DNA from: Dehalococcoidia bacterium
GTDB lineage: Bacteria > Chloroflexota > Dehalococcoidia > Lucifugimonadales > JAAXIE01
Direction of reading: 5' to 3'
Assembly (NCBI GenBank): GCA_965263155.1
Contig: OZ253586.1
Coordinates: 2,091,002-2,155,001 of the forward strand
Length of the DNA: 64,000 nt
The notes beneath the pieces were generated by a model, which made no database searches, was not told the origin of the DNA, and saw only the letters and a list, made by a program, of their open reading frames with translations. The position numbers and the translations under genes are program-made. Positions within the stretch are counted from its first letter, which is position 1. Every line of letters starts with the position of its first letter. Below are positions 38,208-62,190 of this stretch, piece by piece.

Positions 38208-39413
38208 CTAATCCTGCCGGCCCCGCGCGGCGATGGGCCAATACCCCACCAGCTTGCCGCCCCTTACCGCTCGGATGTAGTCAAATTGGTTTACGCAGAG
38301 AGCCAGGTTATGGGGAACCAGCCATGCCCTGTCCCCCGGCATCAACCGCCCCCAAGCCTGCTCCTCCAACTCCAGGATCCCGTGCTCGGCACTGAACCTG
38401 GTGGCGGTGGCGCCGTCCATTCCGTCCAAAGTCGGCAGCCCGAAATCGGGAGCCATGGCCTTGTGCCCGGCATCCAACACCGCCCGGCCGGGCACAGGAT
38501 GACTGATTACCGTGGCCAGAACCCGGGCTGCTGGGGCCAACTCCGGGCGAATCCGGCAGGTCTCGGCGTCCATCAATGGATAGGCCCCCGCCTGCACCTC
38601 GGTTACGCCGGAGATGTTCTGGGCTATGTCGTAGTTGTAGGTGCTGCCCACGCTGACCATCTCCACCGGCAGACCCTCACGCTCCAGCAGTTCCCTCGTG
38701 TCCACCACCGGCTGCAAGCGCCGACGGGTTTCCGCCTCCAACTCGGCGCGGTCGGTGATGGCCATGGGCCCCTCATGGGACATGAGGCCCCTGAGTTCCA
38801 CCCATTTCACGCTTGGGCAGGTGGCTGTCACGAATTGGGCAAGTTCCAGAGCTTCCAAGCCGGGAGCCACGCCTCCTCTTCCGTAACCTGAGTCGATATC
38901 CACCACTACTCTCAGGCTCTCCCCTGCCACCTCGAACGCCTCGGCCAGGTCACGCACATTGCGTGGGTTGTCAACCGCGAGGGCAACAGAAGTGCCATTA
39001 CTCTTGCATAAAGCGCAAAGACGGAGAATTTTGGACTTCGTTACCACTCTGCCGGTGATCAGTATCTCGTCGAAACCGGCCGAGGCGAACGTTTCCGCCT
39101 CGCCCAGCGTATTTACGGCGATGCCCCTGAATTTGCGCGTGGGCACCCCAACGTAATCGGTATCGACCAGATGCCAATCCATGGATCGCATTTGTTCCCA
39201 GCCAATATCAGGGCACCCGTGGCAGGACATATGCGGGCGCAGCCAGACATCGTTCGTGATTTCATACCACCCTCTCATGTCGCCTGTCCGCGCATCAAAG
39301 GAGCGATGAACCGTATCCATGTTCCGCGTCATCACATCCAGGTCCACCACCAGTGCCGGGGTGTCCAGTTCTTCTTGAGAAGTTCCCACCGGCTGGAAAA
39401 TCGGTCGTTCCAT
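38208..39413 (-). CDS. DSD1-like PLP enzyme, tandem paralogue
   Basis: It carries LDTPALVVDLDVMTRNMDTV. The layout is collinear with 37039..38142 (..VTEVQ(G/A)G(T/A)Y.., ..G(Q/D)(Q/R)(V/A)(L/W)L(I/V)P..). Confidence 0.8.
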   Translation of the reverse strand: MERPIFQPVGTSQEELDTPALVVDLDVMTRNMDTVHRSFDARTGDMRGWYEITNDVWLRPHMSCHGCPDIGWEQMRSMDWHLVDTDYVGVPTRKFRGIAVNTLGEAETFASAGFDEILITGRVVTKSKILRLCALCKSNGTSVALAVDNPRNVRDLAEAFEVAGESLRVVVDIDSGYGRGGVAPGLEALELAQFVTATCPSVKWVELRGLMSHEGPMAITDRAELEAETRRRLQPVVDTRELLEREGLPVEMVSVGSTYNYDIAQNISGVTEVQAGAYPLMDAETCRIRPELAPAARVLATVISHPVPGRAVLDAGHKAMAPDFGLPTLDGMDGATATRFSAEHGILELEEQAWGRLMPGDRAWLVPHNLALCVNQFDYIRAVRGGKLVGYWPIAARGRQD

Positions 39414-40351
39414 TAGTTCCGTCCCTCTGGTCGATACTTCCTGCGGTCAGAATATTGCTGGCAGAATATCACAAGAGCGGCATGCGGCTGAACTCGGAGT
39501 TCAGCCGTTCCTGGGTCCCGTCAGCCATGGCCCTATGGTACGCGGGGATGCTCTCACGAGATGCCGGAGGGTCTCGGGGCGACGGGGGGTGTCCGGTGCT
39601 GGGGAATCGCTCTAGGGACGATATCTCGATGAGCGCCTTACAACCGAGGTCGTATTTGCCCGTCATGCGAGAGCACCATCCAAGCTCAAGAGCCTTGGCC
39701 AGCTCATTGGGTATCGGCCCCGTCAGCTGGTTCTTTTCCACCACCGACCTGGGTAAAGGTTCTGGTCATGCGGGTAGGTAGATAGTGGCTTGGCAAATAG
39801 AGATACTCCCAGAAGCTAGTCCGGGTCCCGGGCGAGGCACACGACCCTCGCGAAAAGGCGGAAGATGCCCCGCGGCTAGGCGGAGCCTTTGTTCTGGCGA
39901 GGCCGTCTGATGCCATTACAGACACGTTACTAGCACGGGAGCTTCACGCTTTTCGCTGGCTAGTAAGCATCATGGGTATCACGGGCCACTACTTGCCCTG
40001 CTATTGCGAGCTACCCCCAAACTCTTCACGCGGAAAGGACTGCGGCATTTCACCTTAGCCCAAGGCAAGGAGAAAAGGCCCCTAGCTGTACAGTGGGGCT
40101 CTTTTGCTGTTGTTAGTACTCCTTCCGTTGCCTCGGCGAGGATTAAGACGGGTTACCGAGCGGGGGCCCGGTTGGCAGGAGGCTGACTCGCCAGCGAACT
40201 CGTGCGGCAGAGGAAGTAGCCGCCCTGCGCCTTAAATGGTGCCCCAGAGGCCAAGCCGGCCATCGATGGGTGAAACCATCGTCCACCCACCTCACTGGCA
40301 TGCCTAGCAACGCCACTGTACGACCGCTACGCTTTTGTCTTCGTGGTTGAC

Positions 40352-40360
40352 TGGTATAAT
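40352..40360 (+). promoter_or_regulatory. extended -10 promoter element (TGGTATAAT)
   Basis: TGnTATAAT lies 33 nt upstream of ATG 40393. A GAAGGAA SD follows. The paralogue at 59401 carries the analogous TGATATAAT. Confidence 0.4.
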
Positions 40361-40392
40361 CCCGGCGACACACTACCCGAAGGAATACTGAA

Positions 40393-40692
40393 ATGCCAGA
40401 GTTTGAGGTCGTGGCCCTCCGAGAGGCAATGATGTCCTCAACTACCACCGGAAAGAGAGCACAAATAGCGCAGGAATATGCCGGCTATATCGGACGCCTG
40501 CGCCCCGATGAGGCAGGCAGACTCACACCCTCAGATGGGGAAACCGTCGCCACCGTGCGCCGTCGCCTGGGTTCGGCAGCGAAAGCTTCAGGAAGAAGCA
40601 TACAAATAAGACGCGTCGGCACCGACATCTACTTTTGGGAGGACGCTCCCAAAAGGCGTGGCGGGAGGCCACGCAAGAATCCCTCGCCCTGA
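40393..40692 (+). CDS. small basic protein with an AT-hook-like C-terminus (RRGGRPRKN); paralogue of 59090..59401
   Basis: 99 aa. It is about 60% identical by eye to the 103-aa ORF at 59090..59401. The promoter and SD architecture are conserved. No family recognised. Confidence 0.7.
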   Translation: MPEFEVVALREAMMSSTTTGKRAQIAQEYAGYIGRLRPDEAGRLTPSDGETVATVRRRLGSAAKASGRSIQIRRVGTDIYFWEDAPKRRGGRPRKNPSP

Positions 40693-40836
40693 CCCACTTC
40701 GCCACCGCCCGCACGCACAGGACGAGAGGGTTGTCCGGTACTCCGCAGACTAGGAGAACCCCTTCCAACCGGAGCTTGCAAATATGTGTGGTCGCCGAGG
40801 CGTTGGCTCCCCATTCCCCGGGTGGATGGTGAGTTC

Positions 40837-41061
40837 ATGCCACTGAGCGTACTCACTTGGAATGTTCAGTGGGCTACTCCCAACTCGTGGCGAACTACCG
40901 ACATCTCCAGCCGCATTGATCGACACTCGCCTGACGTTGTCGGTCTCACCGAGACCCATGTGGGACTGCTCTCTCAACGTGGGCACACGATCTCCTCGAG
41001 CAAGCGGGGCTCTATCCCTCGCTACATCTGGACGCTGCATCTGCATGAGTGCCAAATGTGA
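40837..41061 (+). pseudogene. EEP-family nuclease/phosphatase, N-terminal fragment only
   Basis: MPLSVLTWNVQWA....ISSRIDRHSPDVVGLTETH matches the l.v.tWNv.......i...i....pDvv.LqE start of EEP domains. The ORF then degenerates and stops after about 75 aa. Confidence 0.45.
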
Positions 41062-41118
41062 CCGGCATTTTGGCAGACCAGGGGCACTACTAGGAAGGGT
41101 GGAGTTTAGGGCCAAGCC

Positions 41119-42924
41119 ATGCTAAGACTCCTTGGTGTCACCAACTTCGCCACCATAGAACAGCTCGAAATAGAGTTGGTGCCCGGCTTTAGTGTACTAA
41201 CCGGGGAGACGGGAGCGGGTAAGTCGATCATCGTGGACGCGCTGAGCCTTCTACTTGGAGGACGCGCCGATGTTGGCATGGTACGTTCTGGCACTCGCCA
41301 GTCCAGAGTAGAGGGCATCTTCCTGCTTAGGGGCGACATGTCTCAGAGAATCAATGTTGCTCTTGCTGAGTACGGAATTGACGTCGCCGAAGAGGAGATA
41401 CTTCTCGCTCGGGAGGTCAACCTGGATGGACGCAACACCTGCCGCGTGAACGGGCGAATCGTATCTCTCAGGATGTTAAACTCACTGGCGAGATACCTGG
41501 TGGACATCCATGGTCAAAATCAGCACTTATCCCTTCTCCGCGTGCGTGAGCATATGGATATCCTGGACAAGTATGGAGGGCTATGGCAACTTCGCACCGA
41601 GGTGGCAGAGAGGGTCCGCCAACTAGCGGAGGTGCGCCAAGAGTTAGACGGGCTTTTGAAGGATGAAGAAGAGCTCGGTCAACGAATCGATTATCTGAGG
41701 TATCAAGTAGAGGAGATCAGCACAGCAAATCTACGCCCAACTGAAGATCATGACCTGACCCTGGAGAGGGACCGGGGCGCCAACGCAGAGCGAATCATCA
41801 CACTGTCCGACCAAGCCTACAGAGTACTATCCGATAGCTCCGACCGGCACGAATCGGTCATGGATCTTATCGGGCAGGTGTCCAAGGACCTTTCCGAGCT
41901 GGAACGACTGGACCCCTCGTTGAATCAGAACCGTGAGACGGTAGACGCCTTGACCCACCAGGTAGAGGAGTTGGCGCGTGCACTCCGAGGCTATCGTGAT
42001 GGCATCGAACACAGCGCGAACCGTCTTCAGGAGGTTGAGGAGCGTTTGGGCTTGATCAACAATCTCAAAAGGAAGTACGGCAGTACCATCGAAGAAATCC
42101 TGGCCTTTGGCGAGAGGGTCTCGCAGGAGCTGGAAAAGCTGCATCACAGCGAAGAGCGTGCGGAGGAATTGAAATCCCGAGAGATCAAGCTTCGAACGCA
42201 GGTCGGCAGACTTGCGGGTCAGCTCTCCGAAGCCCGGCGACGCGCAGCCAAGCGCTTGGCTGATGCTATACAGGAAGAGGTCGCCGGGCTGCCCTTGGGA
42301 CACGCTCAAGTGCTTGTGGATATCCGTCAATCAGACTCGGATGACGGTGTGCCGGTTGGGACCGCGGAGTCGGTCTCCTACACAACACCTTCTTTAGGCG
42401 GGGAGTCTGTCAGGCATCTCGCGTTCAACGGGACAGGTATAGACTCCGTGGAATTCTTGATCTCTCTGAACCCAGGTGAACCGCCACGACCCCTAGCCAG
42501 AATCGCCTCGGGAGGAGAAGCCTCCAGGCTGATGCTTGCCATTAAGACAATCCTATCCACGGCTGACCAGATTCCGATACTCGTGTTCGACGAAGTCGAT
42601 GCGGGGATAGGAGGCCGAGTCGGGAGTGTCCTGGGTGAGAAACTATGGGGTCTGTCCAAGAGCCACCAGGTCCTATGTGTAACTCACCTCCCACAAATAG
42701 CGTGCTATGCAGACCACCACGCTAAGGTTACAAAACTCGCCTCACATGATAGGACCGTGACATCGGTGGAGGTTCTGGACGGTGAGGCCAGGGTGACGGA
42801 ACTTAGTCAGATGCTGGGCTCCGATAGCGGCGCTACCCGCACCAACGCCTTGGAGATGTTACTGCAGGCCAAGAACTGGAAGGAGAGCAAAAGGGTGTAC
42901 CCCATGCAGGAAACCCTTGCATAA
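41119..42924 (+). CDS. recN: DNA repair protein RecN
   Basis: 601 aa. It starts MLRLLGVTNFATIEQLEIELVPGFSVLTGETGAGKSIIVDALSLLLGGRAD. It has a long coiled-coil middle. The C-terminus carries ASGGEASRLMLAIK and LVFDEVDAGIGG. Confidence 0.95.
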   Translation: MLRLLGVTNFATIEQLEIELVPGFSVLTGETGAGKSIIVDALSLLLGGRADVGMVRSGTRQSRVEGIFLLRGDMSQRINVALAEYGIDVAEEEILLAREVNLDGRNTCRVNGRIVSLRMLNSLARYLVDIHGQNQHLSLLRVREHMDILDKYGGLWQLRTEVAERVRQLAEVRQELDGLLKDEEELGQRIDYLRYQVEEISTANLRPTEDHDLTLERDRGANAERIITLSDQAYRVLSDSSDRHESVMDLIGQVSKDLSELERLDPSLNQNRETVDALTHQVEELARALRGYRDGIEHSANRLQEVEERLGLINNLKRKYGSTIEEILAFGERVSQELEKLHHSEERAEELKSREIKLRTQVGRLAGQLSEARRRAAKRLADAIQEEVAGLPLGHAQVLVDIRQSDSDDGVPVGTAESVSYTTPSLGGESVRHLAFNGTGIDSVEFLISLNPGEPPRPLARIASGGEASRLMLAIKTILSTADQIPILVFDEVDAGIGGRVGSVLGEKLWGLSKSHQVLCVTHLPQIACYADHHAKVTKLASHDRTVTSVEVLDGEARVTELSQMLGSDSGATRTNALEMLLQAKNWKESKRVYPMQETLA

Positions 42925-45224: not shown

Positions 45225-45567
45225 TTCTCGGCTCTTCCAGGAATGCCCAATGGCGACCAGCTATCTTCCTCTAGGGCTAATATGGAACAAGGAGGGCACG
45301 ATGCCCCCTCCGAGACAAAAGGTCATGCAAAGGCACCGTGGTAGCTGTGGGGTAGCTCGCATCAGGGGCTCAAAGAACCCAGCAAAGGGCGGGCACGTCG
45401 CGGGTTTGGGCAGGGCACAACTCCACTGATAGCCCCCTTCGGCTTTACAGAATAACTATTGTGTGAACCACAGTCTCCGACAAACGGTGGGCCAGCAAGA
45501 CCACCAGCAGCACCTGAAACCCACCCGCTTCCAAGGTTGCGGCCACGATCTCACGCAGGTTCACTTA

Positions 45568-46913
45568 GCAGGCTGCTGAAGAATAGTTTCTGGGCCGGTT
45601 AGGCATACTGGTTTAAGTGGGCGTGGAATGGCTTTCGCTGGAGAGTAGGGCGGTCTGGGGTTCCAGCGGGCGCGACTCGGGTGGGGATCAGCAAGGGCTG
45701 GGAGGGCCCGCCAGACCTTACGGGCACACAGCCACGCTCAGGGGATCACGCCGTCCGAACGGCCCGAGTCCTCTCACACGCCACCAGGTTCGCCATCCGC
45801 ACCAGGTTGTAGGCCGTAGCCACAAAGTACCCAGCCAGCCCCGTCCTCTCTACTCCCCGGTACCGTGTCCTCCGTAATCCTCCCACTGTCTTCATCCACC
45901 CGAACACCTCCTCCACCCTCTTGCGTACCTTCTGGCTCGCCCTTGTAGCTAGCGTGCCTCGTGGTGCGCCCGTCTATCGCCGAGTGTGTCCGCCGCGCCA
46001 CGTGAGGCGTCACCCCACGATTGCGCATAGCCCTGACACACTCCCGGGTGTCGTAGCCCTTATCAGCTCCCAGGGTCCTGGGACGGTATCCCCCGCTGCC
46101 GGGCGTCGTCCAGCATCACGGGCACAGCCTCACGCTCCGCCCTACCCGTGGCCCTGCTCACCACGAAGTCCATCAACAGCCCGTTGCCGTTCTCCATCAG
46201 CGCGTGGCCCATGAATGACAGCCTAGCCTCCCTGCCCTTCCCCTTCCGCATCAACCTGGCCTCGGGGTCCGTCCTGCTCTCGTGGGTCTCGTTCTTCAAC
46301 CTCTCTCCACGAAAGTCCACCCACGGATTGCCTGGATCGTCGCCGGGCGGTGGCTCCCCCTCATCTCGCCGCCGGAAGCTCTTGATGCTGGCCACTGCCT
46401 CTATCAGCGTCCCGTCCACGCTGAAGTGCTCGTCCGACAGCAGTCCACGGCGGTCCGCCTCCCATACCACCTCGTCGAACAGGGCCTGTCCCACACGGTG
46501 TTCCAGCAATCGTTTCCGGTTTTTTGTGAACACCGTGGGGTCAAAGCTAGGCTCCATCAGGTTCATGTCCAGAAACCAGCGAAAGAGGAGATTGTATTCC
46601 AACTCCTCGCAGAAGGCCCTCTCGCTGCGCACCGAGTAGAGGGATATGAGCAGGGAGGCCTTCAGCAATCGCTCCGGTGACACCGATGCCCGGCCCACCC
46701 TGGAGTACATCCGGTCGAACTCGGGTGAGAGACGTTTCAGCGCCTCGTCGGCCACCGCCTTGATGGTGCGTAGAGGATGGTCCTTGGGTACCCGCTTCTC
46801 CAGATTCACGTAGGCCAACATCACTTCCTGTTCCTCATGCCTGCCGCGCATCCCCCACCTCCGCTGCGTCTCCCCGGCATCCTATCTCACAAAACTCTTT
46901 TCCCGCACCCTGT
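45568..46913 (-). mobile_element. IS5/IS1182-like full-length copy, transposase decayed by frameshifts
   Basis: Both IRs are present, each abutting TA. The transposase is split into ORF 46063..46851 plus fragments such as 45774..46028. Confidence 0.9.
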
Positions 46914-46923
46914 TAGGTCTCCG

Positions 46924-48102
46924 TCATGCGTTGGGCCAACCCACCATGCAAAGCAGGTCATCAATTTGGTCAATGTGCCGAGGGTGGATTCTGGGCGTGG
47001 GACCTCCTTCGGCATGGTCGGCCCACAGAGCAAAGGTAACCCCTTTCAGGTAGACGAGGTAGTCCATAAACTGGTCTCGGCTTATCCGGTGTTCTTTGGC
47101 GGGGTCAATTACCTCGGGACCAACAAAAGGGGCAGGTGACAGGGTGAAGCCCCGGACCTGCGGGTCGCCCATCCTAAACGAGCCGCTGTGAGATGCCCTC
47201 CCGTAGATGAACCGTTGGGTTCCCGTTCCCGTGGGGAATCCATCCCAGCATTGATGCTGCACGCCATCAATATCAACATCGATGAGATTTCTCTTCGAAG
47301 CATATTCCTTAATGCCGATGAAGGCTTGATATGGGAATCCGCAAGTGTCTCTTATCTGAGACATTCGGGAGAATAGCATGTCGGCATCGCCATCCGCCTC
47401 ATACTTTGCATTGACCTCATTTACGGCTGAAGTGTAGTCCCCCATCTCCTTGTGGTAGTCACTCCAACTCTTCGTGTCCAGGTCCACCAGCTCTTCCATC
47501 TTGCGCGCCCGGCAAGGCACTGCGTAAGGTTCGACTATAACAGGTTCGGTTAGGTAACCCGGGTCTTCATCTGCGGTACCTCGGGCGTCGTCTCCGACCC
47601 GCACCGCATAAACGTCGATGCCTTGCTGTCGCAGGGTATCAATCTTCTTCCAGCTTGGGGATGACGTATCCACGACCTCAATGATAGCCGTCGGCTTCCA
47701 AGCGTTCCTCGCGTACAGGCTGATGTCCGGGGTGAATCTGTTGAAAGGCTCCTCTAGTTCTGCCCGCCCGCCTCTAAGCCCATGGAGCAGGTTGTGCACT
47801 ACGGGGAACCCGCCCCCGCATATGCAATCGAACGGCTCGCGGTAGATGACGTGAAAGCAGCTACGTCGCGGATAGGGACGGGACCGTTGGCTGGCCAGCG
47901 CAGACTCCAGTACCTCGAAGTCCGGCTGGTCGCGCATGTGGTCAGCAATCTCAATCGAACGGAACTCATGGGGCGTTGCCCTGCCGTAGTAGGAAGCTTT
48001 ATCTTCCTGGGATAGTGCGTTTTTTAGCCTGTTCCACAACACGACCTTGGTGGCCCAGTGCGGAGTGCCTTCTGGATGCAGAGGTGTCCCCATGTTCATC
48101 AA
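46924..48102 (-). CDS. hypothetical protein with a PD-(D/E)xK / CoiA-like nuclease motif
   Basis: 392 aa and AT-richer than the flanks. FTPDISLY...PTAIIEVVDTSSPSWKK resembles the PD...E(I/V)xxS..K core of CoiA-type restriction-endonuclease-fold proteins. The rest is unrecognised. Confidence 0.6.
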   Translation of the reverse strand: MMNMGTPLHPEGTPHWATKVVLWNRLKNALSQEDKASYYGRATPHEFRSIEIADHMRDQPDFEVLESALASQRSRPYPRRSCFHVIYREPFDCICGGGFPVVHNLLHGLRGGRAELEEPFNRFTPDISLYARNAWKPTAIIEVVDTSSPSWKKIDTLRQQGIDVYAVRVGDDARGTADEDPGYLTEPVIVEPYAVPCRARKMEELVDLDTKSWSDYHKEMGDYTSAVNEVNAKYEADGDADMLFSRMSQIRDTCGFPYQAFIGIKEYASKRNLIDVDIDGVQHQCWDGFPTGTGTQRFIYGRASHSGSFRMGDPQVRGFTLSPAPFVGPEVIDPAKEHRISRDQFMDYLVYLKGVTFALWADHAEGGPTPRIHPRHIDQIDDLLCMVGWPNA

Positions 48103-48134
48103 TGGTGCCCCCTTCTCTTTGAGAATAACTATTG

Positions 48135-48507
48135 TAGGAGTCCGGGGCCGTGGTCATCACCGGCGTGACGGCGGTGTGCTCCGGAGACTCCTTCCGCTGA
48201 CCAAAGACGGCCCTCGCCTGCTCCCGGGTGAGGATTCCCCGCAGGGTGAAGTCCCGCGCAATCAGGAACACGGCGTCCAGGCCGTGACTCTCCATGGCGT
48301 GGAGCGCCGCCCGGGGGCCCTGCCGCTCGTACACCACAACGTTGGGCCCCCGCATAATGGTCTTCGCCTGGATGACCTCGGCCCTGGAGACGTCGCGCAC
48401 TAACTCCGTCACGTAGTCGTCGGGGGCAAGGTGACTATCTCCTCCGACGAGTCCTCTTGGATAATCTCTCCGTCCCGCATGATGGCAATACGGTCGCCTA
48501 TCTTGTG
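48135..48507 (-). pseudogene. glycine-betaine/proline ABC transporter ATPase (ProV/OpuAA-like), C-terminal fragment with a CBS domain
   Basis: It reads KIGDRIAIMRDGEIIQ..EEIV..(frameshift)..PDDYVTELVRDV..VIQAKTIM.....HGLDAVFLI..LRGILT. The 5' end is cut by the IS fragment at 48508. Confidence 0.6.
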
Positions 48508-48772
48508 CTGGCTGGGTACTTTGTGGCTACGGCTTACAACCTGTTGCGGATGGCGAACCTGGCGTCGTGTCAGAGGGCTCGGGCCGTTCAGTCCGTGTGA
48601 TTTGCCTGGGGTGCAAAGCGCCCCAAGGGTCTGATGAGGCCTCCCAGCCCTTGCTGACCACCTCTCGGGCCGGCCCGTGGGCTCCATGCCCCCTTCCGGC
48701 CTACTGCTAAGCGTCGCCGCCCGCTAGAACCGGCCACGTCTTACCAAGGAAACCTATTCTTCAGCAGCCTGC
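48508..48772 (+). mobile_element. IS5/IS1182-like 3'-terminal fragment
   Basis: It aligns with 27815-28082 of the full copy. It ends ..CTATTCTTCAGCAGCCTGC followed by TA. Confidence 0.85.
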
Positions 48773-48804
48773 TAGTGGCGCCGCACTACAATCGGTGCCT
48801 GCCT

Positions 48805-52422: not shown

Positions 52423-53074
52423 ACACGCTGCGGAAGAATGGGTTTTCGCAGTCAGACGTGTCCAGTCTGAGTGGCGGCGACGTCCTGAGTGGGCCGGAAC
52501 GTCGGTCTGGGATCCACGGGCATGATTCAGGTGGGGATCAGCAAGGGCTAGGAGGGCCCGTCAGACCTTGCCGGCGCACTGCCACGCTCAGGGGAGCGAG
52601 TCCGACCGGCCCGAGCCCTCTCATACGACACCAGGTTAGCCATCCGCACCAGGTTGTAGGCCGTAGCCACCAAGTACTCAGCCAGCCCCGTCCGTTCAAT
52701 ACCCCGGTACCGTGTCGGCCGTAGTCCCCCCACCGCCTTCATCCACCCGAACACCTCCTCCACACGCCTGCGGACCTTCTGGCTCGCCCTGTAGCCAGCG
52801 TGCCGTGTGGTGCGTCCGTCTATCGCCGAGTGTGTCCGCCGCGCCACGTGAGGCGTCACCCCCCGGTTGCGCATGGTCCCGACACACTCCCGGGTGTCGT
52901 AGCCCTTGTCAGCTTCCAACGTCTTGGGACGGTATCCCCGCTGCCTCGCATCGTCGAGCATCACGGGTACTGCTTCCCGCTCCGCCCTACCCGTGGCCCT
53001 GCTCACCATGAAGTCCATCAGCAACCCGTTGCCGTTCCTATCCTATCCCATAAATTTATTTTTCAGCAGCCTGC
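52423..53074 (-). mobile_element. IS5/IS1182-like deletion derivative (IRR end + 3' half of the transposase + a second IR-like end)
   Basis: It begins with IRR ACACGCTGCGGAAGAATGG at 52423. ORF 52548..53024 is the C-terminal 158 aa of the transposase. Homology stops at about 53037. A 25-bp ATAAATTTATTTTTCAGCAGCCTGC end follows at 53050-53074. Both ends abut TA. Confidence 0.85.
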
Positions 53075-53089
53075 TAATGGTATCTCTCC

Positions 53090-53692
53090 CGTATAGGCGG
53101 GGCGCAAGGGGCATTTGTCAGAGATAGTGGGTGGGTTAGGGCGGCTCGGCGCTCGGTGAGTACTACCCTGCGGGATATCCTCCTGGATTGAGGACCTGCA
53201 TGGCGGAACATCGCGGACGGTGAAGGTGGGGACGCCTCTGGTGGTGGCTCTGAGGGTGGTGGCGGCGGGGTCGTGTGCGCCGATTGCGGGTGGATGCGTA
53301 TGGGCGGTATTCGGGGTTCCGGGGGCAGGGCAGTGATGGGGCGGACACGTCGGGGGAGATGTTCCTGCGGGGGACGCATATCACGCAAGCGGACGGGCTG
53401 GTGGAGTTTGAGACGATCTATCTGGAGTGGTATCCGGGGAGGACGGCGCATATCCACTTCAGGGCGTCTACGGAGGAGGGGAGTCTGGTGTTGTCGCAGT
53501 TGTATTTCCCGGATGAGGTGACGGATGTGGTGTAACTCGGGGGTGCCGTATTCGTTTCGGAAGGACCGTGGGACGCGGAATGGGAATGATGGCGTGTTGC
53601 GGGGGGACCTGGGGGTGTTGATGGGGGATGTGGTGGAAGATGGGGAGGGGTGGGTGGTGGAGTTGGTTGTGGGGGTTGGGAGGTGAGGGGGC
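53090..53692 (+). pseudogene. intradiol ring-cleavage dioxygenase, decayed
   Basis: Pieces lie in three frames: GTPLVVALRVVAAGSCAPIAG; then VDAYGRYSGF....FLRGTHITQADGLVEFETIY..WYPGRTAHIHFRAS....SQLYFPDE; then PYSFRKDRGTRNGNDGV....VVELVVG. Confidence 0.6.
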
Positions 53693-53812
53693 TGACTATC
53701 CTGATAAACGCTTATTGCGCAGAAACGGCCACACAGACACAGCACGTACCATACTATGCTCGGAAAGTAGGCCGCCTCGAGACCCCCTACTGACTTCTGA
53801 GCACATAGGAAA

Positions 53813-55225
53813 TCACATTTTCTCTGTCATAGCCGCCTTAGCAATCCCCAAAGCCAGTTGATGGTTAGTGTCCTCATATTTCAACTGTCTAAGGGCTTCC
53901 ACGTACACTACGGGCGCCAAATCGGACGGGTTACCTGCTTGACTGGCCCATTCACGACATCTCTTGATGAACCCCGGGACGGGACATCCAGTCAGATACT
54001 CCTCAATGTTGAACCATGCTCCTGCCTGATCATTGGTTGGCCAAGTGTGTCTGCGGAAGGGGCTGTCGCTGTGGAACAGAACCGACAGCTCCAGGATGAT
54101 CGGGTCGATACAAGCTGGAGCAGAGCCGACGTTAGCGAAATCTATAACGACTGCTCCTTCCGACCCATTGCAAAGAACGTTAGAGCCGTGTAGGTCTCCG
54201 TGCTGATAGCTTGTTGTTATCTCCTGTTCAGTGCTCTCAAACTTCTCTATCGCACCGAGTGTTGCTTGATATTTGAGCAATCTGGAGTCACTAATTCGTT
54301 GCGCCCGCAGGTCATGGATACTGTGAGGTGTAGGTTCACAGAATTTGGTCCAAGGCTCAAAAAGGGCTTGGAGTCTTTCAACGATGGCCATAGCAGCGGC
54401 CTCGTCCTGAGCCAAGAGGGTAAACAAGCTCTGAGAATAATCTTCTGCTAGCTGGTAACACAGTGCTTCTCGTTTCCCGATACCCGCTTCGAGCTCGCGA
54501 TTCAACGCTGGATATGTCCCCATCTTGAGGAGCGGACTCACGTAAGAGCGGTAATTTTGCCTTTCAGCTTCTATTTTCGCTCGCACGTCGATTTTCATAA
54601 AGTAATTGGCGAGTGTGCGCCCTCGATCATCCGCAACCCTTAGCTTAAGGGTCTGGGCGCCTGACAGCCCACCCAAAGTACTACCTTCAACACTAGTGCC
54701 GTGATGTGAGCGGGCCACGAGTTGCAATGCTCGATTGTCAATATGGTCAAGACCACTACCACCATCCGATAGCTTTATATCGATAAGTTCCAACAGTGCT
54801 AATTCGGCGTTAAAGTGTCTGACTCTCTCCACACACGACAAGAATTCGTCTTTAGGTAGCAGGTGGGTCATGGGGTACCGCTCATCGGTCCCAAAAATGT
54901 TCTGTGTTCCTCCAGTAGAGAGCCTCTCTACAACATTTCCGCTTGTGCCAAAGCCGGTAAAGAACAAGCAAGGTGTACCTGGCGTGCAGTTCCTTATCTC
55001 AGCATGCACCGCGAGCCCATGTTCCTCAAAGATGTCGAGACCTCCATCTTGAGGAGGCAGACGCAAGTCGCAAATGATGAAATCGAATTCGTGCTGTTCA
55101 AGTTTCTCGACGGCACTCGAGCGGCTTCTTGCGATAACTATGGCTATGCTTGGCTCTAGGGTGGACAGACGTGCGCGTAGCCTGTCGACGACACCCGGTT
55201 CATCCTCAACGAGGAGGAGTTTCAT
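53813..55225 (-). CDS. response-regulator receiver domain fused to an aminoglycoside-phosphotransferase/protein-kinase-like fold
   Basis: 470 aa. The receiver (REC) part reads MKLLLVEDEP..FDFIICDLRLP..CLFFTGFG. The kinase-fold part has ANYFMKID (Lys), YQHGDLHGSNVLC (catalytic loop) and AVVIDFANVG (DFG equivalent). Confidence 0.85.
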   Translation of the reverse strand: MKLLLVEDEPGVVDRLRARLSTLEPSIAIVIARSRSSAVEKLEQHEFDFIICDLRLPPQDGGLDIFEEHGLAVHAEIRNCTPGTPCLFFTGFGTSGNVVERLSTGGTQNIFGTDERYPMTHLLPKDEFLSCVERVRHFNAELALLELIDIKLSDGGSGLDHIDNRALQLVARSHHGTSVEGSTLGGLSGAQTLKLRVADDRGRTLANYFMKIDVRAKIEAERQNYRSYVSPLLKMGTYPALNRELEAGIGKREALCYQLAEDYSQSLFTLLAQDEAAAMAIVERLQALFEPWTKFCEPTPHSIHDLRAQRISDSRLLKYQATLGAIEKFESTEQEITTSYQHGDLHGSNVLCNGSEGAVVIDFANVGSAPACIDPIILELSVLFHSDSPFRRHTWPTNDQAGAWFNIEEYLTGCPVPGFIKRCREWASQAGNPSDLAPVVYVEALRQLKYEDTNHQLALGIAKAAMTEKM

Positions 55226-56238
55226 TTTCCTGCAGCCTCACGAGGCCATCGCACTTCGCATGAGACTCCAGACTCAGCCCGCGGGGTAAGGCGAAGTGAC
55301 CCGCCCATGGACTGTATGGCTCTTTGAGCTATGGGAAGTCCCATTCCAAGATGGCCCTCGTCCTTGGACTTAGTGCTAGTACCCAACTCGTTGACGCGAT
55401 CCGCCCCGGGTGGAAGCCCACATCCTCGGTCGAGGACCACAACCCAGTTATCGGTATTTGTCATTCCCCAGTTTAGAATGATGGGACGCTGGCTACACTC
55501 ATGAACCTCAAGCGTAGCCTCAATAGCATTTCGAAGCGCGTTTGCTAAAGCAATCTCAATCAACGCTGGATCTCCCATCGTCACCACGGGACCTTGTCCA
55601 CCCAGCGATAGCTCTACTACCGGCTGCTGGGTTGTGGTGTCGGCATCATTTTCGAGACCGAAGTTCCGATTTTCTTCCTGTTCAAAGGCATCTAAGGTCG
55701 CCCGGCCGTGGCGTACCTCATCAGTTGCAACTCGTACGACAAGGTCGGTGAGATTGAATTCCTGAATAAGCGGTGCCGTAGAGGCTTTTCGAAGTCGCTG
55801 TATTGTGTCTAGAAACGACCGCGCTCGACCGACCGATTGTTTGGTTGCGCTGCATTCATAATAGGCTATTTCTCGCTCAGCAGCGTCGTCTATAAAGCCA
55901 ATTAGAGGTCGCAACTCATGGAGGAACATCGCCGATGTTTCTTCGATCGCTTGGGCACGAATTTCTTCGTGGGCTTGAACATCTGGCAACGAATCGACGA
56001 CCACTTTGGCCGCGACTGGAAGCTCGGATGGCGAGGTCATCGCTGAACGTTTTAGGGCCCTATCAAGAGCTTGCTGCACCCAAGAATTAGGTTCAATAGC
56101 CCTAGCTTTCGATACCCTGTAACGACAGGCTGGTGTCGCGTTACGCGCGAGGAAGCGTGCAGCTCGAAGACGCTCGCTCGGTGCCGCGGCAGGCACCCGC
56201 TCTAGGACAGCAAGAGCTTGATCATTATCCATGGCCAT
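55222..56238 (-). CDS. soluble histidine kinase (no TM segments)
   Basis: The H-box is FLHELRPLIGF, the N-box is LANALRNAIEA, and the G-boxes are VVLDRGCGLP and GHLGMGLPIAQR. A helical N-terminal region of about 90 aa precedes them. The start is ATG 56238 or 56232, overlapping the ATPase stop. The stop overlaps the RR start (ATGA). Confidence 0.85.
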   Translation of the reverse strand: MAMDNDQALAVLERVPAAAPSERLRAARFLARNATPACRYRVSKARAIEPNSWVQQALDRALKRSAMTSPSELPVAAKVVVDSLPDVQAHEEIRAQAIEETSAMFLHELRPLIGFIDDAAEREIAYYECSATKQSVGRARSFLDTIQRLRKASTAPLIQEFNLTDLVVRVATDEVRHGRATLDAFEQEENRNFGLENDADTTTQQPVVELSLGGQGPVVTMGDPALIEIALANALRNAIEATLEVHECSQRPIILNWGMTNTDNWVVVLDRGCGLPPGADRVNELGTSTKSKDEGHLGMGLPIAQRAIQSMGGSLRLTPRAESGVSCEVRWPREAAGK

Positions 56239-58144
56239 CGCCGAGCACATCCTGATAGAACATAGCCCGCCTTTGGAACGCTTTAACACCCCCTTCCATC
56301 ACGGATGTTATTGCCCTCGCCGTAGCAGGAACGTCTAGCTTACCGGTGTGTTCGACGAACCCGCGGCGCCCGTCTGACGCGAGTCGGACAACAAGATCTG
56401 CATCCCCAAGTACCGGGATATTTGCATTGTGTGACGCCAATATGAACTGGTCTCCTGCGTGCCGTTTTCGTAGCTGCTCAACTAACGTTTCGGTAATGAA
56501 CGCATTATCTAGATGATCTTCAGGTTGGTCAATGATCAGCAGCTCTCCGTGGCCACTCAGGAGAATGGGTAAGACGACTGTGCAACGCTGCCCTATAGAA
56601 AGTCGATTGGATCGCTTGTAGTCTATTCCGTCCAAGAGGGACATCTCCACTGCGTCGTCGATCGGGGCCGCAACAATGTCAGCGAGGCTATGTGACTGCA
56701 GATAAGTCATCATGTTTATTGCTCGTTCAGTAGTAATATCAGCTGCCTCTGTGATAGCGTCAATATCGCTGGATTCTACTGCCTCGACTAGTTCAAGAGG
56801 AGACATGCAGGCGGCGAGGAGGGGAGCTAAGGAATTATAGTGAAGACCACTTCCACGCAGCGCGCTCGCGATGATATTCGCATAGCCATCGGTCATACCG
56901 GACTCGACTAGTTCGCTCCTTATTTCGGGACTAAGATCGGCGTTTAACTTCTGCGTGATCTGAAAACGAGACTTATATCGTTCAGTTCTGTCCTGCTCAA
57001 GTGCCTCAAAAATACGGCGTCGCAAAGCTTGAAGCTCCGCGACTCGCTTAGTGCGCTCATCTGCGAGAACTTCTAATGCTCCCAGCTGAGCTTCGCGTTC
57101 TGTAAGAATCTCCACTTGTCTCGTCAGTGCTCCTGCACCCGCCTGCAGTTCCTCCAATGCACGGCGAGACGCTCGGGCCTTCTCATCCGTTAGGAGGCGG
57201 TCGGAGGAATTGTCAGTAATGAGCACCTGAATATCGGACTCTGCAGATTCTAGGATGGCGATAGTGGTTCTTAGGGCTTGCGCGGCTGCGGTACTCCTTT
57301 GCCGAATCCCCGATAGGAGATCATTTTCGCCAGCGCTGTCGGGCCATGGCTCGATTGTTCGCAGTCCCTCGGCGATATTGACCAGGGTCTGGCGCAAACT
57401 GCCCAGCGTGGTCGTGGTCCTGTCGTAGACGCCACTCCTGACCCCAAGAATGGCAGCCCGAGCTTGGAGCTCCGCAAGCTCTCGGCGATCGTTTTCAGTC
57501 GTTGCAATTGACTTGAGCAAATCTCTTTGCTGTTCGACCGCATGAAGCCGCTCACTACGGACCGTCTGCATGTCCGAGATTTGCTCGCTAATGGATCTGA
57601 GTTCATCCCGTACGCCGCTAATCTCTGCCGTAATTGAGCGCAAAGTCGAAGTGAGAGAAACCCGTCGCTGGTCAATTTCTCCCCTATTGAGCCTGAAGCG
57701 ATCGATTAGGAGAAGCCTACCAGTCGCCTGTGCGCCAACCGCTTCGATCTCACTTTGCGCAAGAACCGTGACAGGTGGAATCTGTCGGGTGGATCGAGGA
57801 ACCTCGTCGCGAGCGGCCCGGGTCACAACGAAACGCTCGCCTGCATCTCGAAGGACCAAAGAGATTTGTCCGCCCTGAAGAACACTGAGCGCCTGCTGAT
57901 GTCCTCGGCGCGCTGCGTCCTCGGTGAAGGCTGAAGCTCCAAGGGCGAATCTAATGAGCTCTATCAACGATGTCTTTCCAGTTCCACGGGCGCCAATGAG
58001 GACATTCAACCCAGGAACGAACTCGACATTAAGACCATTTAGGAATCCATCCTCAATCTGCACTTGCTCTATAAGCACTTTTGCACTCCAGGCTTGCTTT
58101 AGCGGTATGTGAGACGTTACTAATTCGAAAGCTAGGCGCGTCAT
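56225..58144 (-). CDS. SMC/Rad50-like ABC ATPase with a long central helical insert
   Basis: The likely start is ATG 58144 (MTRLAFELV). The listed 58240 start reads through from the HyuB remnant. Walker A is GARGTGKTS. The middle of about 350 aa is Q/E/R/L-rich. The signature-like motif is LSIGQR and Walker B is LLIIDQPEDHLD, followed by ILASHNANIPV. Confidence 0.85.
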   Translation of the reverse strand: MTRLAFELVTSHIPLKQAWSAKVLIEQVQIEDGFLNGLNVEFVPGLNVLIGARGTGKTSLIELIRFALGASAFTEDAARRGHQQALSVLQGGQISLVLRDAGERFVVTRAARDEVPRSTRQIPPVTVLAQSEIEAVGAQATGRLLLIDRFRLNRGEIDQRRVSLTSTLRSITAEISGVRDELRSISEQISDMQTVRSERLHAVEQQRDLLKSIATTENDRRELAELQARAAILGVRSGVYDRTTTTLGSLRQTLVNIAEGLRTIEPWPDSAGENDLLSGIRQRSTAAAQALRTTIAILESAESDIQVLITDNSSDRLLTDEKARASRRALEELQAGAGALTRQVEILTEREAQLGALEVLADERTKRVAELQALRRRIFEALEQDRTERYKSRFQITQKLNADLSPEIRSELVESGMTDGYANIIASALRGSGLHYNSLAPLLAACMSPLELVEAVESSDIDAITEAADITTERAINMMTYLQSHSLADIVAAPIDDAVEMSLLDGIDYKRSNRLSIGQRCTVVLPILLSGHGELLIIDQPEDHLDNAFITETLVEQLRKRHAGDQFILASHNANIPVLGDADLVVRLASDGRRGFVEHTGKLDVPATARAITSVMEGGVKAFQRRAMFYQDVLGDGHG

Positions 58145-58166
58145 TGTAATCTTTTGGGGACTGACG

Positions 58167-58998
58167 CTAGGTCTGGCCTCGTGAGGACACCAAGCCTCCT
58201 GCGCAATAGTCGCATACCATAACCGAAGCGTCCACTCCATAGTCCTGGGCTGCCTGGTCGGGGGTGATGTAGCCGTTGATGAGGTCTTGTTGGATGCTCT
58301 GGGGGTTGCCGTAGCCTCCGGCGCCGGCTACGTCGTAGGCGATGGAGTAGCCGTCTCGGAGACGGGGAAGGCGGGGCCCTTGCTGTTGCGGGTGTCGCGG
58401 TTGCCTTGGGGGTCGACTACGTGGACGCTGGTGGGGGCGCCAGCGTGGCCTCCCTGCAGCCGAAGGGTGGCGACTTGGTGCGCTCGCAGCAGATGGTGGC
58501 GGTGGCGGTGTGGCCCAAGACACGCCATTCGCGACGCACCCCGCAGCCTCCACGGTACTGGCCTGCGCCACCGCTGTCGGGACGATTTCGTACTTGTCCA
58601 CCTGCACTGGGAAGCGCATCTCCAGCTCCTCCACAGGGGTCTTCATGGTGTTGCTGATGCCTGCCTTCACCGCGTCGATGCCGTCCTGATTGGGGCAGGC
58701 GCCCATGCCACCGCCGAGGGTCTCGTAGCTGACGTAACGCTGGCCGGTGCGGGGGTCCTGGCCTCCGAGGGTCAGGATGGCGGAGGTGCCTTGGGAGCAG
58801 GCTAGGGCGCGCTCGGGGTAGCCTTGGGCCACGGCACCGAACACCATGTCAGCGATTGCGGTGGGTCATCTCGTGGTTGGCGTAGACGACCGGGGCGGGG
58901 GGCAGCACGTTGACCACGCTGCCTTCTGGGGCAACGACGTCGACGGCGCGCCAAGTGCCGGAGTTGGGGGGAATGATGTCGTTGGGGTCGTTGATCAT
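58167..58998 (-). pseudogene. hydantoinase B/oxoprolinase (HyuB) family, truncated at both ends and frameshifted
   Basis: The pieces are ..NSGTWRAVDVVAPEGSVVNVLPPAPVVYANHEM..; ..AILTLGGQDPRTGQRYVSYETLGGGMGA...NTMKTPVEELEMRFPV..; and ..GAGGYGNPQ....ITPDQAAQDYGV. They lie in at least 3 frames. Confidence 0.75.
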
Positions 58999-59089
58999 CA
59001 ACCTTCGCGCCAAGGGCTACTAGCCAGCATGGTCATAGGAAGGGTCAAAAGGCCTAAACACTCACGGTCACCAACACTTGAGACTTCCT

Positions 59090-60933: not shown

Positions 60934-62190
60934 GTGGGGCAGGGGGAGAGTTCGCCCGGAACTGGGGAGCCCGTGTGGAGCAACATCCTTGGGGCGACGG
61001 CGGCCAGCTATACGCCAGTGACGATGGATGCAGGGCGCGTACTACGCGCTGAGGTGACTTATCGGGACGGGAATGGAACAAACAGAAGTGCCGCCAGTGG
61101 CCCTACTGCTCGGGTTGACCAGCGGGGCATGGTTACGCTGTCTCCATCAATGCCGGTGGTGGGGGAAGTACTGACGGCGACGCTGACTGATGAAGACGGG
61201 GATACTACCGGCGAGGTGTGGTTGTGGGAGAGATCCTTGGGGGGAAGCGCTGGCTCATGGGCGACCATTGATGGAGTGCTGATGGCGAGCTACACACCGG
61301 TGGCCCCTGCCGACGTAGGCGCGTTTCTGCGTGTCACGGTGACTTATAGCGATGGAATAGGGACTGGTAGGACCGCCGTCAGCGCGCCAACAGACCGACT
61401 GGACCAGCGGGGAGCCGTGGGATTGAGTTCCAATGTCCCGGATGTGGGCGTCCAGCTGACGGCAACGCTGACTGACCCAGACGGCATGATGACCAACGCG
61501 GAGTGGCGGTGGCAGTGGTCGCCGAGTAGCGGTATGCAGTCGTGGAACGATGTGCCGGGAGCGGAAGGCGCTACGTATTCGCCAACGACGGCTGACGAAA
61601 GGATGCTTCTGCGGGTCACAGTGGTCTACGACGATGCTATAGGCGGCGGGCGGATGGTGGCGAGTCCTGCTACCGATCGTGTGGGGAAGCCCGGGGTGGT
61701 CAGCTTGGACTCCGGCCTCCCAGTGGCGGGCACGGCGCTCACGGCAATGCTGACGGACCCAGACGATAGCATCGCCAATGTAGTGTGGCAATGGGAGAGC
61801 TCCGATTTTGGGGGCGAGCCTCCATGGGCGGTGGTTTCTGGTGCGGAGTCTGCCATCTATACACCGCAGCCAAGCGATGCGGGTCGTCGGCTGCGCGCAG
61901 CAGCAGTGTACAGCGACGCTAGGGGTGAAGGGCGAACAGCTAGGAGCTTGCCAACCGCACCCGTGGACCAGGAGGGCGCAGTCAGCCTGTCAACGTATAC
62001 GCCCGAGGTAGGCACAGGGGTAGTGGCCGCTTTGACCGACCCGGATGGAGGCGTGGCCAACGAGACGTGGCAGTGGGAGAGGCCGACGGATGACGACGGG
62101 AACGTTTCGGGTCATATGTGGCAGTGGGGGCGTGCAGCAGCGGATGCAGATGCAGCTATACGCCCCGAACCGATGATGGTGTGTGGGTAG
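60934..62190 (+). CDS. repeat protein with four to five units of about 95 aa each (W-x-W-E-R ... YTP...DAG..LR..V.Y.D); probably 5'-truncated
   Basis: Each unit reads (E/V)W.WERS.....W..I.GA....YTP...D.G..LR..V.Y.D..G..R.A.S..T..V...G.V.LS...P.VG..LTA.LTDPDG. There is no signal peptide at the listed start. Confidence 0.7.
   Translation: MGQGESSPGTGEPVWSNILGATAASYTPVTMDAGRVLRAEVTYRDGNGTNRSAASGPTARVDQRGMVTLSPSMPVVGEVLTATLTDEDGDTTGEVWLWERSLGGSAGSWATIDGVLMASYTPVAPADVGAFLRVTVTYSDGIGTGRTAVSAPTDRLDQRGAVGLSSNVPDVGVQLTATLTDPDGMMTNAEWRWQWSPSSGMQSWNDVPGAEGATYSPTTADERMLLRVTVVYDDAIGGGRMVASPATDRVGKPGVVSLDSGLPVAGTALTAMLTDPDDSIANVVWQWESSDFGGEPPWAVVSGAESAIYTPQPSDAGRRLRAAAVYSDARGEGRTARSLPTAPVDQEGAVSLSTYTPEVGTGVVAALTDPDGGVANETWQWERPTDDDGNVSGHMWQWGRAAADADAAIRPEPMMVCG

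Follow-up and report, generated by a model that had tools for sequence, protein, structure and literature searches.

What is the function of an operon that joins an ATPase of the SMC/Rad50 type to a soluble histidine kinase (HK) and to a response regulator whose receiver domain is fused to a kinase-like fold (RR-kinase)? The question is raised by three adjacent genes, the triad, in a 64,000-nucleotide stretch of a Dehalococcoidia bacterium genome (GenBank assembly GCA_965263155.1, contig OZ253586.1, positions 2,091,002 to 2,155,001 of the forward strand). This stretch is called the window, and positions refer to it unless another locus is named. The combination of the three components is undescribed in the sources searched, the parts themselves being of known kinds. 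We lean, by a little, towards regarding the triad as a self-contained mobile signalling cassette that acts in conflict with invading DNA, be it in phage defence or in the restriction of plasmids and other mobile elements.

A conserved unit of three genes

The triad occupies three long minus-strand open reading frames (ORFs) at 53813-58240, whose longest forms are 671, 355 and 470 amino acids (aa). The genes, together with the two junctions as read directly from the sequence, are as follows.

56225..58078, minus strand: gene 1, SMC/Rad50-type ABC ATPase, 617 aa from GTG 58078 (639 aa from the alternative ATG 58144)
55222..56238, minus strand: gene 2, soluble HK, 338 aa (336 aa from ATG 56232)
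53813..55225, minus strand: gene 3, RR-kinase, a receiver with a TCAD9/APH-type kinase-like domain, 470 aa
56225..56238, minus strand: gene 1 stop codon TAA (56227-56225) inside the start region of gene 2
55222..55225, minus strand: ATGA overlap of the gene 2 stop TGA (55224-55222) with the gene 3 start ATG (55225-55223)

It is evident from the other genomes carrying these genes that the trio is an obligate unit. A genome scan anchored on the RR-kinase, with one genome kept per species, gave 72 loci; in 33 of about 38 with a full-length match and enough flanking sequence, the ATPase, HK and RR-kinase genes are co-linear on the same strand. The conservation of the triad across phyla, which a preliminary description of this DNA had proposed to test, is thereby borne out. 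The exceptions are contig edges, fragments and a four-member Dehalococcoidia clade with a solo RR-kinase. In a metagenome scan of 80 loci anchored on the HK, the RR-kinase lies downstream in every locus with room for it (70/70), and the ATPase lies upstream in 64 of 65, the remaining locus being degraded. Further, all-against-all clustering of the ORFs of 35 loci returned as conserved the three triad genes and their antisense shadow ORFs. A fourth conserved gene was considered and rejected on the same clustering, which shows three genes only. The candidate in question was a stand-alone PHP-domain gene two genes downstream of one triad (L006:12621-13502), whose position is probably coincidental because the other loci are without it.

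The three genes are under purifying selection. The closest relative of the cassette, in a Dehalococcoidia metagenome-assembled genome (L009), shares 89% nucleotide identity over window positions 53710-58999, and the ratio of nonsynonymous to synonymous substitution rates (dN/dS) against it is 0.10 for gene 1, 0.16 for gene 2 and 0.14 for gene 3.

Translational coupling had been proposed in the preliminary description, and both junctions read as it had them. The overlap of genes 1 and 2 amounts to 14 nt if gene 2 starts at ATG 56238 and to 8 nt if it starts at ATG 56232. The same description had begun gene 1 at ATG 58144; its assignment to the SMC/Rad50 ATPases stands, and the start is probably GTG 58078 instead, because gene callers and nearly all homologues give the 617-aa product and a GGAG lies 8 nt upstream of this codon. 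The ATG of the longest ORF, at 58240, falls within the preceding hydantoinase-fragment ORF. Residue numbers of gene 1 below refer to the 617-aa form. A promoter and terminator scan gave signals not above chance.

The cassette had also been described as AT-richer than its surroundings and wedged between two decayed metabolic genes, and both points hold. Its GC content is 53.0%, while both immediate flanks have 61% and the whole window 57.4%; at third codon positions (GC3) it has 48-52%, as compared with 59-72% for four other window ORFs. Upstream lies a 5'-truncated fragment of a hydantoinase B/caprolactamase (beta) gene (58167-58847, minus strand), and downstream lie a weak dioxygenase fragment and an insertion sequence (IS) remnant. 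The hydantoinase B gene is intact in L009 (583 aa, L009:5308-7059), and the triad has the same place downstream of it in both genomes. Between its triad and the following segment in common (window 53202-53686), L009 also holds about 4.4 kb (L009:11506-15917) that the window is without.

Architecture of the three proteins

The domain make-up first read from the sequence is recovered by Pfam matches and by motifs in the translations, of which the following can be placed on the DNA.

57968..57994, minus strand: Walker A motif GARGTGKTS of gene 1 (residues 29-37, by translation)
56834..56860, minus strand: nearly invariant LRGSGLHYN motif of gene 1, in a helical module before the signature motif
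55918..55920, minus strand: codon of the predicted phospho-accepting His107 (MFLHELRPL) of gene 2, from alignment and translation
55067..55069, minus strand: codon of the predicted phospho-accepting Asp53 (IICDLRLP) of gene 3, from alignment and translation
54173..54205, minus strand: catalytic loop QHGDLHGSNVL of gene 3 (D344, N349), from alignment and translation
54128..54151, minus strand: metal-binding 'DFG-like' motif VVIDFANV of gene 3 (D362), from alignment and translation

Gene 1 belongs to the SMC/Rad50-type ABC ATPase fold class, with Pfam matches to AAA_21, SMC_N and AAA_23. Across 36 homologues the Walker A residues G29, R31, G32, G34, K35, T36 and S37 are invariant, as are the Q-loop Gln108, the signature LSIGQR, the Walker B motif LLIIDQPEDHLD and the H-loop His550. 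An extra helical module (residues 397-469) carries the LRGSGLHYN motif and has no Pfam match even at E <= 10. In an AlphaFold2 (AF2) model built with the 36 homologues as input (predicted local distance difference test score, pLDDT, 89), the ABC head is interrupted by an antiparallel coiled coil, which runs up through residues 132-240 and down through 256-382, with arms of about 110-127 residues each. The conserved loop at the apex of the coiled coil, EPWPDSAGENDLL, has neither the Cys pair of a Rad50 zinc hook (CxxC) nor an SMC hinge in the model or the translation. Foldseek searches of the PDB returned JetC of Wadjet, Rad50, Smc, MukB, LmuB and RecN at E 1e-10 to 1e-5, with RecF also matched. 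The top-ranking structure is JetC, a component of the anti-plasmid Wadjet system.

By sequence, gene 1 comes nearest in NCBIfam to the TrlF family AAA-like ATPase (E 6e-77, 260 bits against a cut-off of 350). Of the 944 positions of this profile, 290-943 are aligned, so gene 1 has all of it except the N-terminal approximately 290 aa. Further NCBIfam matches are to Spaf_1101 (136 bits, cut-off 475) and Ppl_antiphage (85 bits, cut-off 1000), and PADLOC matches are to the Ppl C-terminus, to mad3 and, weakly, to LmuB, AriA and GajA. No PHP domain was found in gene 1 by Pfam, and the DNA upstream is the hydantoinase fragment. Judged from these sequence matches, gene 1 is a PHP-less relative of the TrlF/Ppl ATPases.

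Gene 2 has the HK features of a classical two-component system, the phospho-accepting His and the N, G1 and G2 boxes being conserved in 32 homologues. Pfam recognises HATPase_c at residues 222-334 (E 1e-11), and the translation holds the motifs MFLHELRPL, NALRNAIEA, LDRGCGLP and HLGMGLP. The protein is laid out as an N-terminal helical region of about 90 aa, a dimerisation and histidine phosphotransfer (DHp) domain with H107, and a catalytic and ATP-binding (CA) domain with N237, D270-G272-G274 and G298-G300; all of these residues are invariant in the 32 homologues, which reach down to 37% identity. The N-terminal 88 aa and the DHp region have no Pfam match, HisKA included, even at E <= 10, and the N-terminus carries the conserved pattern ERLRAARFL...NSWV..ALD. 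To the eye, this N-terminus might recall a HEAT/PBS-lyase repeat, and the LRGSGLHYN motif of gene 1 a helix-hairpin-helix. The Pfam scan found no membrane-associated or sensory domain, a dedicated transmembrane predictor not having been used, and the homologue alignment has no long hydrophobic stretch.

Gene 3 consists of a receiver (residues 1-125), a helical linker (125-146) and a kinase-like domain (about 150-470). Its Pfam matches are Response_reg (E 1e-10), TCAD9 (PF19974, E 4.5e-18, 66.1 bits, cut-off 40) and APH (E 8e-6), and NCBIfam adds APH(6)/kinase matches. Thus the kinase fold named in the preliminary description is upheld as APH-like, and it turns out to have been catalogued already as TCAD9, an effector-type domain that takes its name from the vWA-MoxR-VMAP ternary conflict systems and is listed among the protein-kinase-like families. 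The receiver has the acidic pocket, phospho-acceptor Asp and conserved Lys of its class: E7, D8, D53 and K125 are invariant, and T84 nearly so, in 32 homologues. In the kinase domain of the same homologues the Gly-rich loop (GGLSGA), K211, E221, the QHGDLHGxN motif at 341-349 (D344, N349) and D362 are invariant. Because its catalytic residues are invariant, the kinase should be active. An exhaustive profile search places the family at 547 clusters (50% identity) at E <= 1e-30, and the top 150 clusters are 464-501 aa long, except for two truncated fragments.

The AF2 model of gene 3 (pLDDT 92) has a kinase-like fold, and the nearest structures found by Foldseek for this domain are APH(3')-Ia/IIa, glucosamine kinase, Rv3168 and a steroid kinase. 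Sequence identity to the APHs is 13-18%, with a target-normalised TM-score of about 0.5-0.58. These nearest folds belong to the small-molecule-kinase branch and hint at a small-molecule substrate; a protein substrate would also be possible.

Mobility, context and rival explanations

The cassette is horizontally mobile and patchy in its distribution. It occurs in five or more phyla: in Chloroflexota (Dehalococcoidia/SAR202, Caldilineaceae, Tepidiformaceae), in Actinomycetota (Humibacillus, Lentzea, Mycobacterium, Propioniciclava, Leucobacter, Arthrobacter, Rhodococcus, Acidimicrobiia, Solirubrobacterales), and in Latescibacterota, Obscuribacteraceae and Gammaproteobacteria (Erwinia sp. JUb26, Photobacterium angustum). 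Chromosomal copies form the majority. Plasmids carrying the cassette number 47, of which 36 are from Piscirickettsia salmonis and 3 from Klebsiella pneumoniae; the remainder come from other hosts, including Vibrio alginolyticus (pMBL287), Rhodococcus, Rhizobium, Phaeobacter, Leclercia and Pantoea. Seven of the 47 are typed as conjugative, among them the examined Klebsiella IncF plasmid, on which the replication gene repA lies about 4.7 kb from the cassette. One K. pneumoniae triad spans positions 38405-42550 of plasmid NZ_CP054974. In several P. salmonis plasmids the annotation gives two hypothetical proteins for the RR-kinase region, which may reflect a split gene or a wrong gene call. Searches of INPHARED and IMG/VR returned no match in phages, and a search of 5,426 complete E. 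coli genomes, restricted to near-identity, returned no DNA near-identical to the Klebsiella copy. No tRNA that might mark an integration site lies within the 64-kb window.

In the window, the surroundings of the triad are rich in mobile and defence genes.

45565-46919, 48507-48778 and 52517-53080: one IS (DUF772 + DDE_Tnp_1 transposase) present three times, as copies or remnants, 87-90% identity
48805-51981, minus strand: operon of NsnA (DUF262/GmrSD_N), NsnB (AAA_15/AAA_21/DUF3696) and NsnC, PADLOC E 9e-116, 4e-97 and 2e-76

The three IS copies share the terminal sequence TTAGCAGGCTGCTGAAGAATA. The second and third bracket the Nsn operon in the manner of a composite transposon, with about 730 nt between the end of the third and the triad. 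The Nsn operon, which is the second defence-like operon noticed earlier next to the cassette, is complete, has a GC content of 53.3% and represents a system listed in PADLOC.

Defence genes also adjoin the triad elsewhere. The neighbours include two DNA methyltransferases of restriction-modification type with a PLD-family gene, an S subunit and an AlbA_2 gene (L002); two ThsB-type TIR genes of Thoeris with BrxL and PglZ of BREX (L004); and an AAA_15-DUF3226 pair, an AlbA_2-HATPase_c_4 gene, a HEPN/nucleotidyltransferase pair and a HEPN-DUF499 gene, which corresponds to HmaC (L005). Single loci add a type I restriction enzyme (L015), MzaE (L020), the DISARM protein DrmD (L024), AbiEii (L085) and a SMEK-domain protein (L084). 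At least 9 of about 39 loci have such mapped neighbours, a small sample reported as raw counts, and unmapped matches include PDC-M41A, PDC-M45C, PDC-S04, mad2 and RmrA. PADLOC was run on the flanking ORFs that reach 150 aa or more and lie no further than 5 kb from the triad at 37 loci; a first set (128 ORFs) matched 106 defence-model families and a second (89 ORFs) matched 14. A control of 130 ORFs around unrelated response regulators from 30 genomes, processed in the same way, matched 39 families, almost all of them generic (NtrC-type AAA regulators, ABC ATPases, Ser/Thr kinases), with hardly any known defence gene among them. Overall, the defence-gene context is positive but moderate, and is suggestive of a defence role without deciding it.

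The window holds several other genes of note. Two minus-strand ORFs between two of the IS remnants, of 392 aa (46924-48102) and 137 aa (47999-48412), have no Pfam, PADLOC or NCBIfam match and are a candidate accessory gene pair, given their defence- and IS-rich surroundings. A second SMC_N/AAA_23 ATPase of 601 aa (41119-42924, plus strand; SMC_N E 2e-17), whose match spans a coiled-coil-type insertion, could be RecN or another defence-type ATPase. A 418-aa protein (60934-62190, plus strand) with about four tandem repeats of some 100 aa each (...TATLTDPDG...WQW...) and a Pfam SCAB-Ig match is probably a surface or adhesion-type repeat protein. The ORF at 35603-36868 (plus strand) joins collagen triple-helix repeats to a trypsin-like peptidase (Trypsin_2, E 5e-21), an unusual architecture for a bacterium.

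How might the three proteins work together? We infer an order of events, including the role of the ATPase as sensor, the direction of the signal, the activation of the kinase by phosphorylation, its substrate and the biological role. Since the HK has no sensory domain beyond its short helical N-terminus and always occurs together with the ATPase, the latter is the likely source of the signal. As Rad50, JetC and LmuB do, the ATPase would probably engage foreign or abnormal DNA, such as ends, through ATP-driven engagement of its heads. The HK would read the state of the ATPase and autophosphorylate on His107, and the phosphoryl group would pass to Asp53 of the gene 3 receiver. Phosphorylation of the receiver could then release or dimerise the fused APH/TCAD9-type kinase and so switch it on. 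The activated enzyme might phosphorylate a small molecule or a protein, leading to growth arrest or to a block to the invader. Taken as a whole, this route from an SMC/Rad50-like DNA sensor through a His-Asp phosphorelay to a kinase acting on a molecule of the cell or invader, possibly a nucleotide or cofactor, so that infection is halted or plasmids are lost, is offered tentatively, at somewhat less than an even chance. Reverse wiring, with the kinase regulating the ATPase, is possible.

Several observations weigh against a role in conflict. Known defence genes are recognisable within 5 kb of only roughly a quarter to a third of the copies. Others sit among ordinary or metabolic genes, including L003, L006, the Rhodococcus chromosome (L081), many actinobacterial copies and most loci of the second set in the neighbourhood scan, so that a defence role is plausible and unproven. 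The solo RR-kinases (L007/L023, L025, L029, L039), at 35-37% identity, keep every catalytic residue and are without the ATPase and HK; at L007/L023, the sole such locus read in detail, Tad-pilus/vWA-FHA genes and an OmpR-type response regulator adjoin the RR-kinase. This clade may represent a different wiring of the same effector. Moreover, the HK was not found paired with any other receiver-effector fusion among the 80 metagenome loci. With the RR-kinase in 70/70 and the ATPase in 64/65 around it, no exchange of effector or sensor is seen, a rigidity that differs from the effector swapping of Detocs, Lamassu or CBASS. DNA binding by the ATPase and its contact with the HK are putative, drawn by analogy, and the effector is not obviously a toxic enzyme, its nearest folds being small-molecule kinases.

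These points invite other explanations. The cassette could be a selfish module of plasmids or mobile elements, in which the ATPase monitors plasmid or chromosomal DNA and the kinase enforces maintenance, exclusion of competitors or post-segregational arrest. The 47 plasmid records, the position near repA on the Klebsiella plasmid, the resemblance of the ATPase to JetC and the failure to find the cassette in phage genomes would all fit such a module. However, most copies are chromosomal and no partition, toxin-antitoxin or replication gene is conserved alongside in the 35 loci. This explanation, which we consider unlikely, also overlaps with the conflict reading, as anti-plasmid activity is itself a form of defence. 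Less likely again is a regulated small-molecule kinase serving resistance or metabolic control, with the APH-like enzyme acting on an antibiotic, xenobiotic or metabolite and the ATPase as an accessory regulator. Such an enzyme would suit the closest folds, the Pfam APH and NCBIfam APH(6)/kinase matches, the several loci among metabolic genes and the low-molecular-weight substrates suggested for the APH-like kinases of ternary systems (Kaur, Burroughs, Iyer and Aravind, 2020; PMC7159879). Yet the resemblance to APHs is distant in both sequence and structure, and the obligate partner is an SMC/Rad50-type ATPase, which has no known role in sensing small molecules. Further, no ligand-binding or membrane domain was detected in the HK, and no transporter or biosynthetic gene is conserved nearby in the 35 loci.

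We regard an accessory module for host DNA-damage or repair signalling as the least probable and indeed very doubtful. Here, a Rad50-like ATPase would detect breaks and the phosphorelay kinase would adjust physiology, in keeping with the sequence and structural matches to Rad50, RecN and RecF and with the Gene Ontology (GO) term 'double-strand break repair' that RefSeq assigns automatically to the gene 1 homologues. It is at odds with the lack of any conserved Mre11/SbcD-type nuclease partner or repair genes nearby, with the patchy, plasmid-borne and compositionally foreign distribution, and with the coiled-coil apex being without a zinc hook. Overall, none of these rivals explains the SMC-class ATPase, the strict three-gene linkage and the mobility better than a conflict system does.

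Comparison with named systems

The preliminary description had found no named system of this composition, and a wider search agrees with it. No name for the triad exists in PADLOC 2.0.0, in NCBIfam (where matches are generic or sub-threshold only), among RefSeq products or in the literature searched. PADLOC 2.0.0 has no model that matches gene 2 or the kinase part of gene 3, whether in the window or in the distant Klebsiella and Vibrio copies. RefSeq names gene 1 'AAA family ATPase', gene 2 'ATP-binding protein' or 'HAMP domain-containing sensor histidine kinase' and gene 3 'response regulator' or 'phosphotransferase'. Literature searches on TCAD9, TrlF, Detocs, combinations of HK, RR, SMC and defence, and the Klebsiella and Vibrio RefSeq accessions returned no description of the triad, and a sequence search of solved structures gave generic receiver (REC), Rad50/ABC and HK matches only.

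The ATPase has its closest relatives by sequence in Ppl (Gao et al., 2020) and the TrlF family, through the TrlF, Spaf_1101 and Ppl C-terminal head matches. TrlF carries the annotation histidinol phosphatase, and a PHP domain is reported for Ppl. Both have the N-terminal domain of about 290 aa that gene 1 is without, and this absence, together with scores under the curated cut-offs, excludes the triad from either family. Moreover, Ppl is a single-gene system, and the temperature-restriction locus of Photorhabdus (TRL; trlR-trlF-trlG) is without a receiver or kinase-fold protein. In that locus TrlF is encoded beside TrlG, which combines AlbA_2/Schlafen with a GHKL-type HATPase_c_4 domain; the pairing of a TrlF-type ATPase with a GHKL-ATPase-domain protein may therefore be a recurring theme.

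With Lamassu (LmuB) and Wadjet (JetC) the triad shares a coiled-coil ATPase of the SMC/Rad50 fold as the presumed DNA sensor. However, its coiled coil is shorter than in these ATPases and has no hinge, and its predicted output is a His-Asp phosphorelay to a kinase, whereas Lamassu and Wadjet use a directly bound nuclease or other effector. The matches of gene 1 to the LmuB hidden Markov model are weak and partial (N-terminal part, E 3e-11), and the operon proteins include no homologue of LmuA or LmuC, or of JetA, JetB or JetD.

The vWA-MoxR-VMAP systems have the TCAD9/APH-like kinase in common with the triad. Active APH-like kinases and sporadic receiver domains are reported among their effectors, and no HKs were found among the vWA-associated effectors (PMC7159879). 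No vWA, MoxR or VMAP gene appears in the gene tables of eight triad loci or among the conserved genes.

Detocs and Ambrosia are the only two-component-based defence systems retrieved from the literature searched, and every component of both differs from the triad save for the generic HK/REC chemistry. Ambrosia (AbrR/A/B/C/D; 10.1101/2025.09.30.679545) likewise places an HK-like HATPase and a receiver protein in a defence cluster, but its receiver is fused to a winged helix-turn-helix domain, presumably for transcriptional control of a methyltransferase/HNH pair, and it has neither an SMC-like ATPase nor a kinase-fold effector. In Detocs (DtcA/DtcB/DtcC) a His-Asp phosphorelay is the immune switch, both the His and the Asp being needed (Rousset et al., 2023; 10.1101/2023.01.24.525353), and a cytoplasmic HK feeds a receiver fused to an enzymatic effector in a compact operon, as is predicted for the triad. 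The differences noted at the outset are nevertheless confirmed and extended. DtcA has N-terminal TPR repeats, its presumed sensor, where the HK of the triad has only its helical N-terminus of about 90 aa. Detocs requires the stand-alone 'buffer' receiver DtcB, and no such gene is conserved with the triad in the 35 loci or in the eight gene tables. Detocs effectors are exchanged among PNP nucleosidases (80%), endonucleases and transmembrane domains, whereas that of the triad is always the TCAD9/APH-like kinase, and Detocs is without the SMC-like ATPase that the triad has. The PADLOC models PDC-M60B/C match the first approximately 60 receiver residues of gene 3 only; with no TPR-HK, no DtcB and another effector, membership in Detocs is ruled out.

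The cassette occurs in culturable and tractable hosts (IncF plasmids of K. pneumoniae, V. alginolyticus, Erwinia, Photobacterium, Rhodococcus qingshengii and plasmids of P. salmonis), which makes the proposal directly testable. That plasmids of Klebsiella and of a fish pathogen carry it so often also has a bearing on plasmid ecology. If the proposal is right, a function could be assigned to the TCAD9 kinase domain, which is present also in vWA-MoxR systems and CRISPR-linked loci, and an SMC/Rad50-class sensor would be wired to a signalling cascade in place of a nuclease. The triad would be the first defence system in which a sensor of this class is coupled to two-component signalling, and likewise the first whose effector is a kinase gated by a receiver. 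Should it prove to be immune or anti-plasmid, it would join Detocs as a second case of immunity switched by two-component phosphotransfer, with an architecture of its own.

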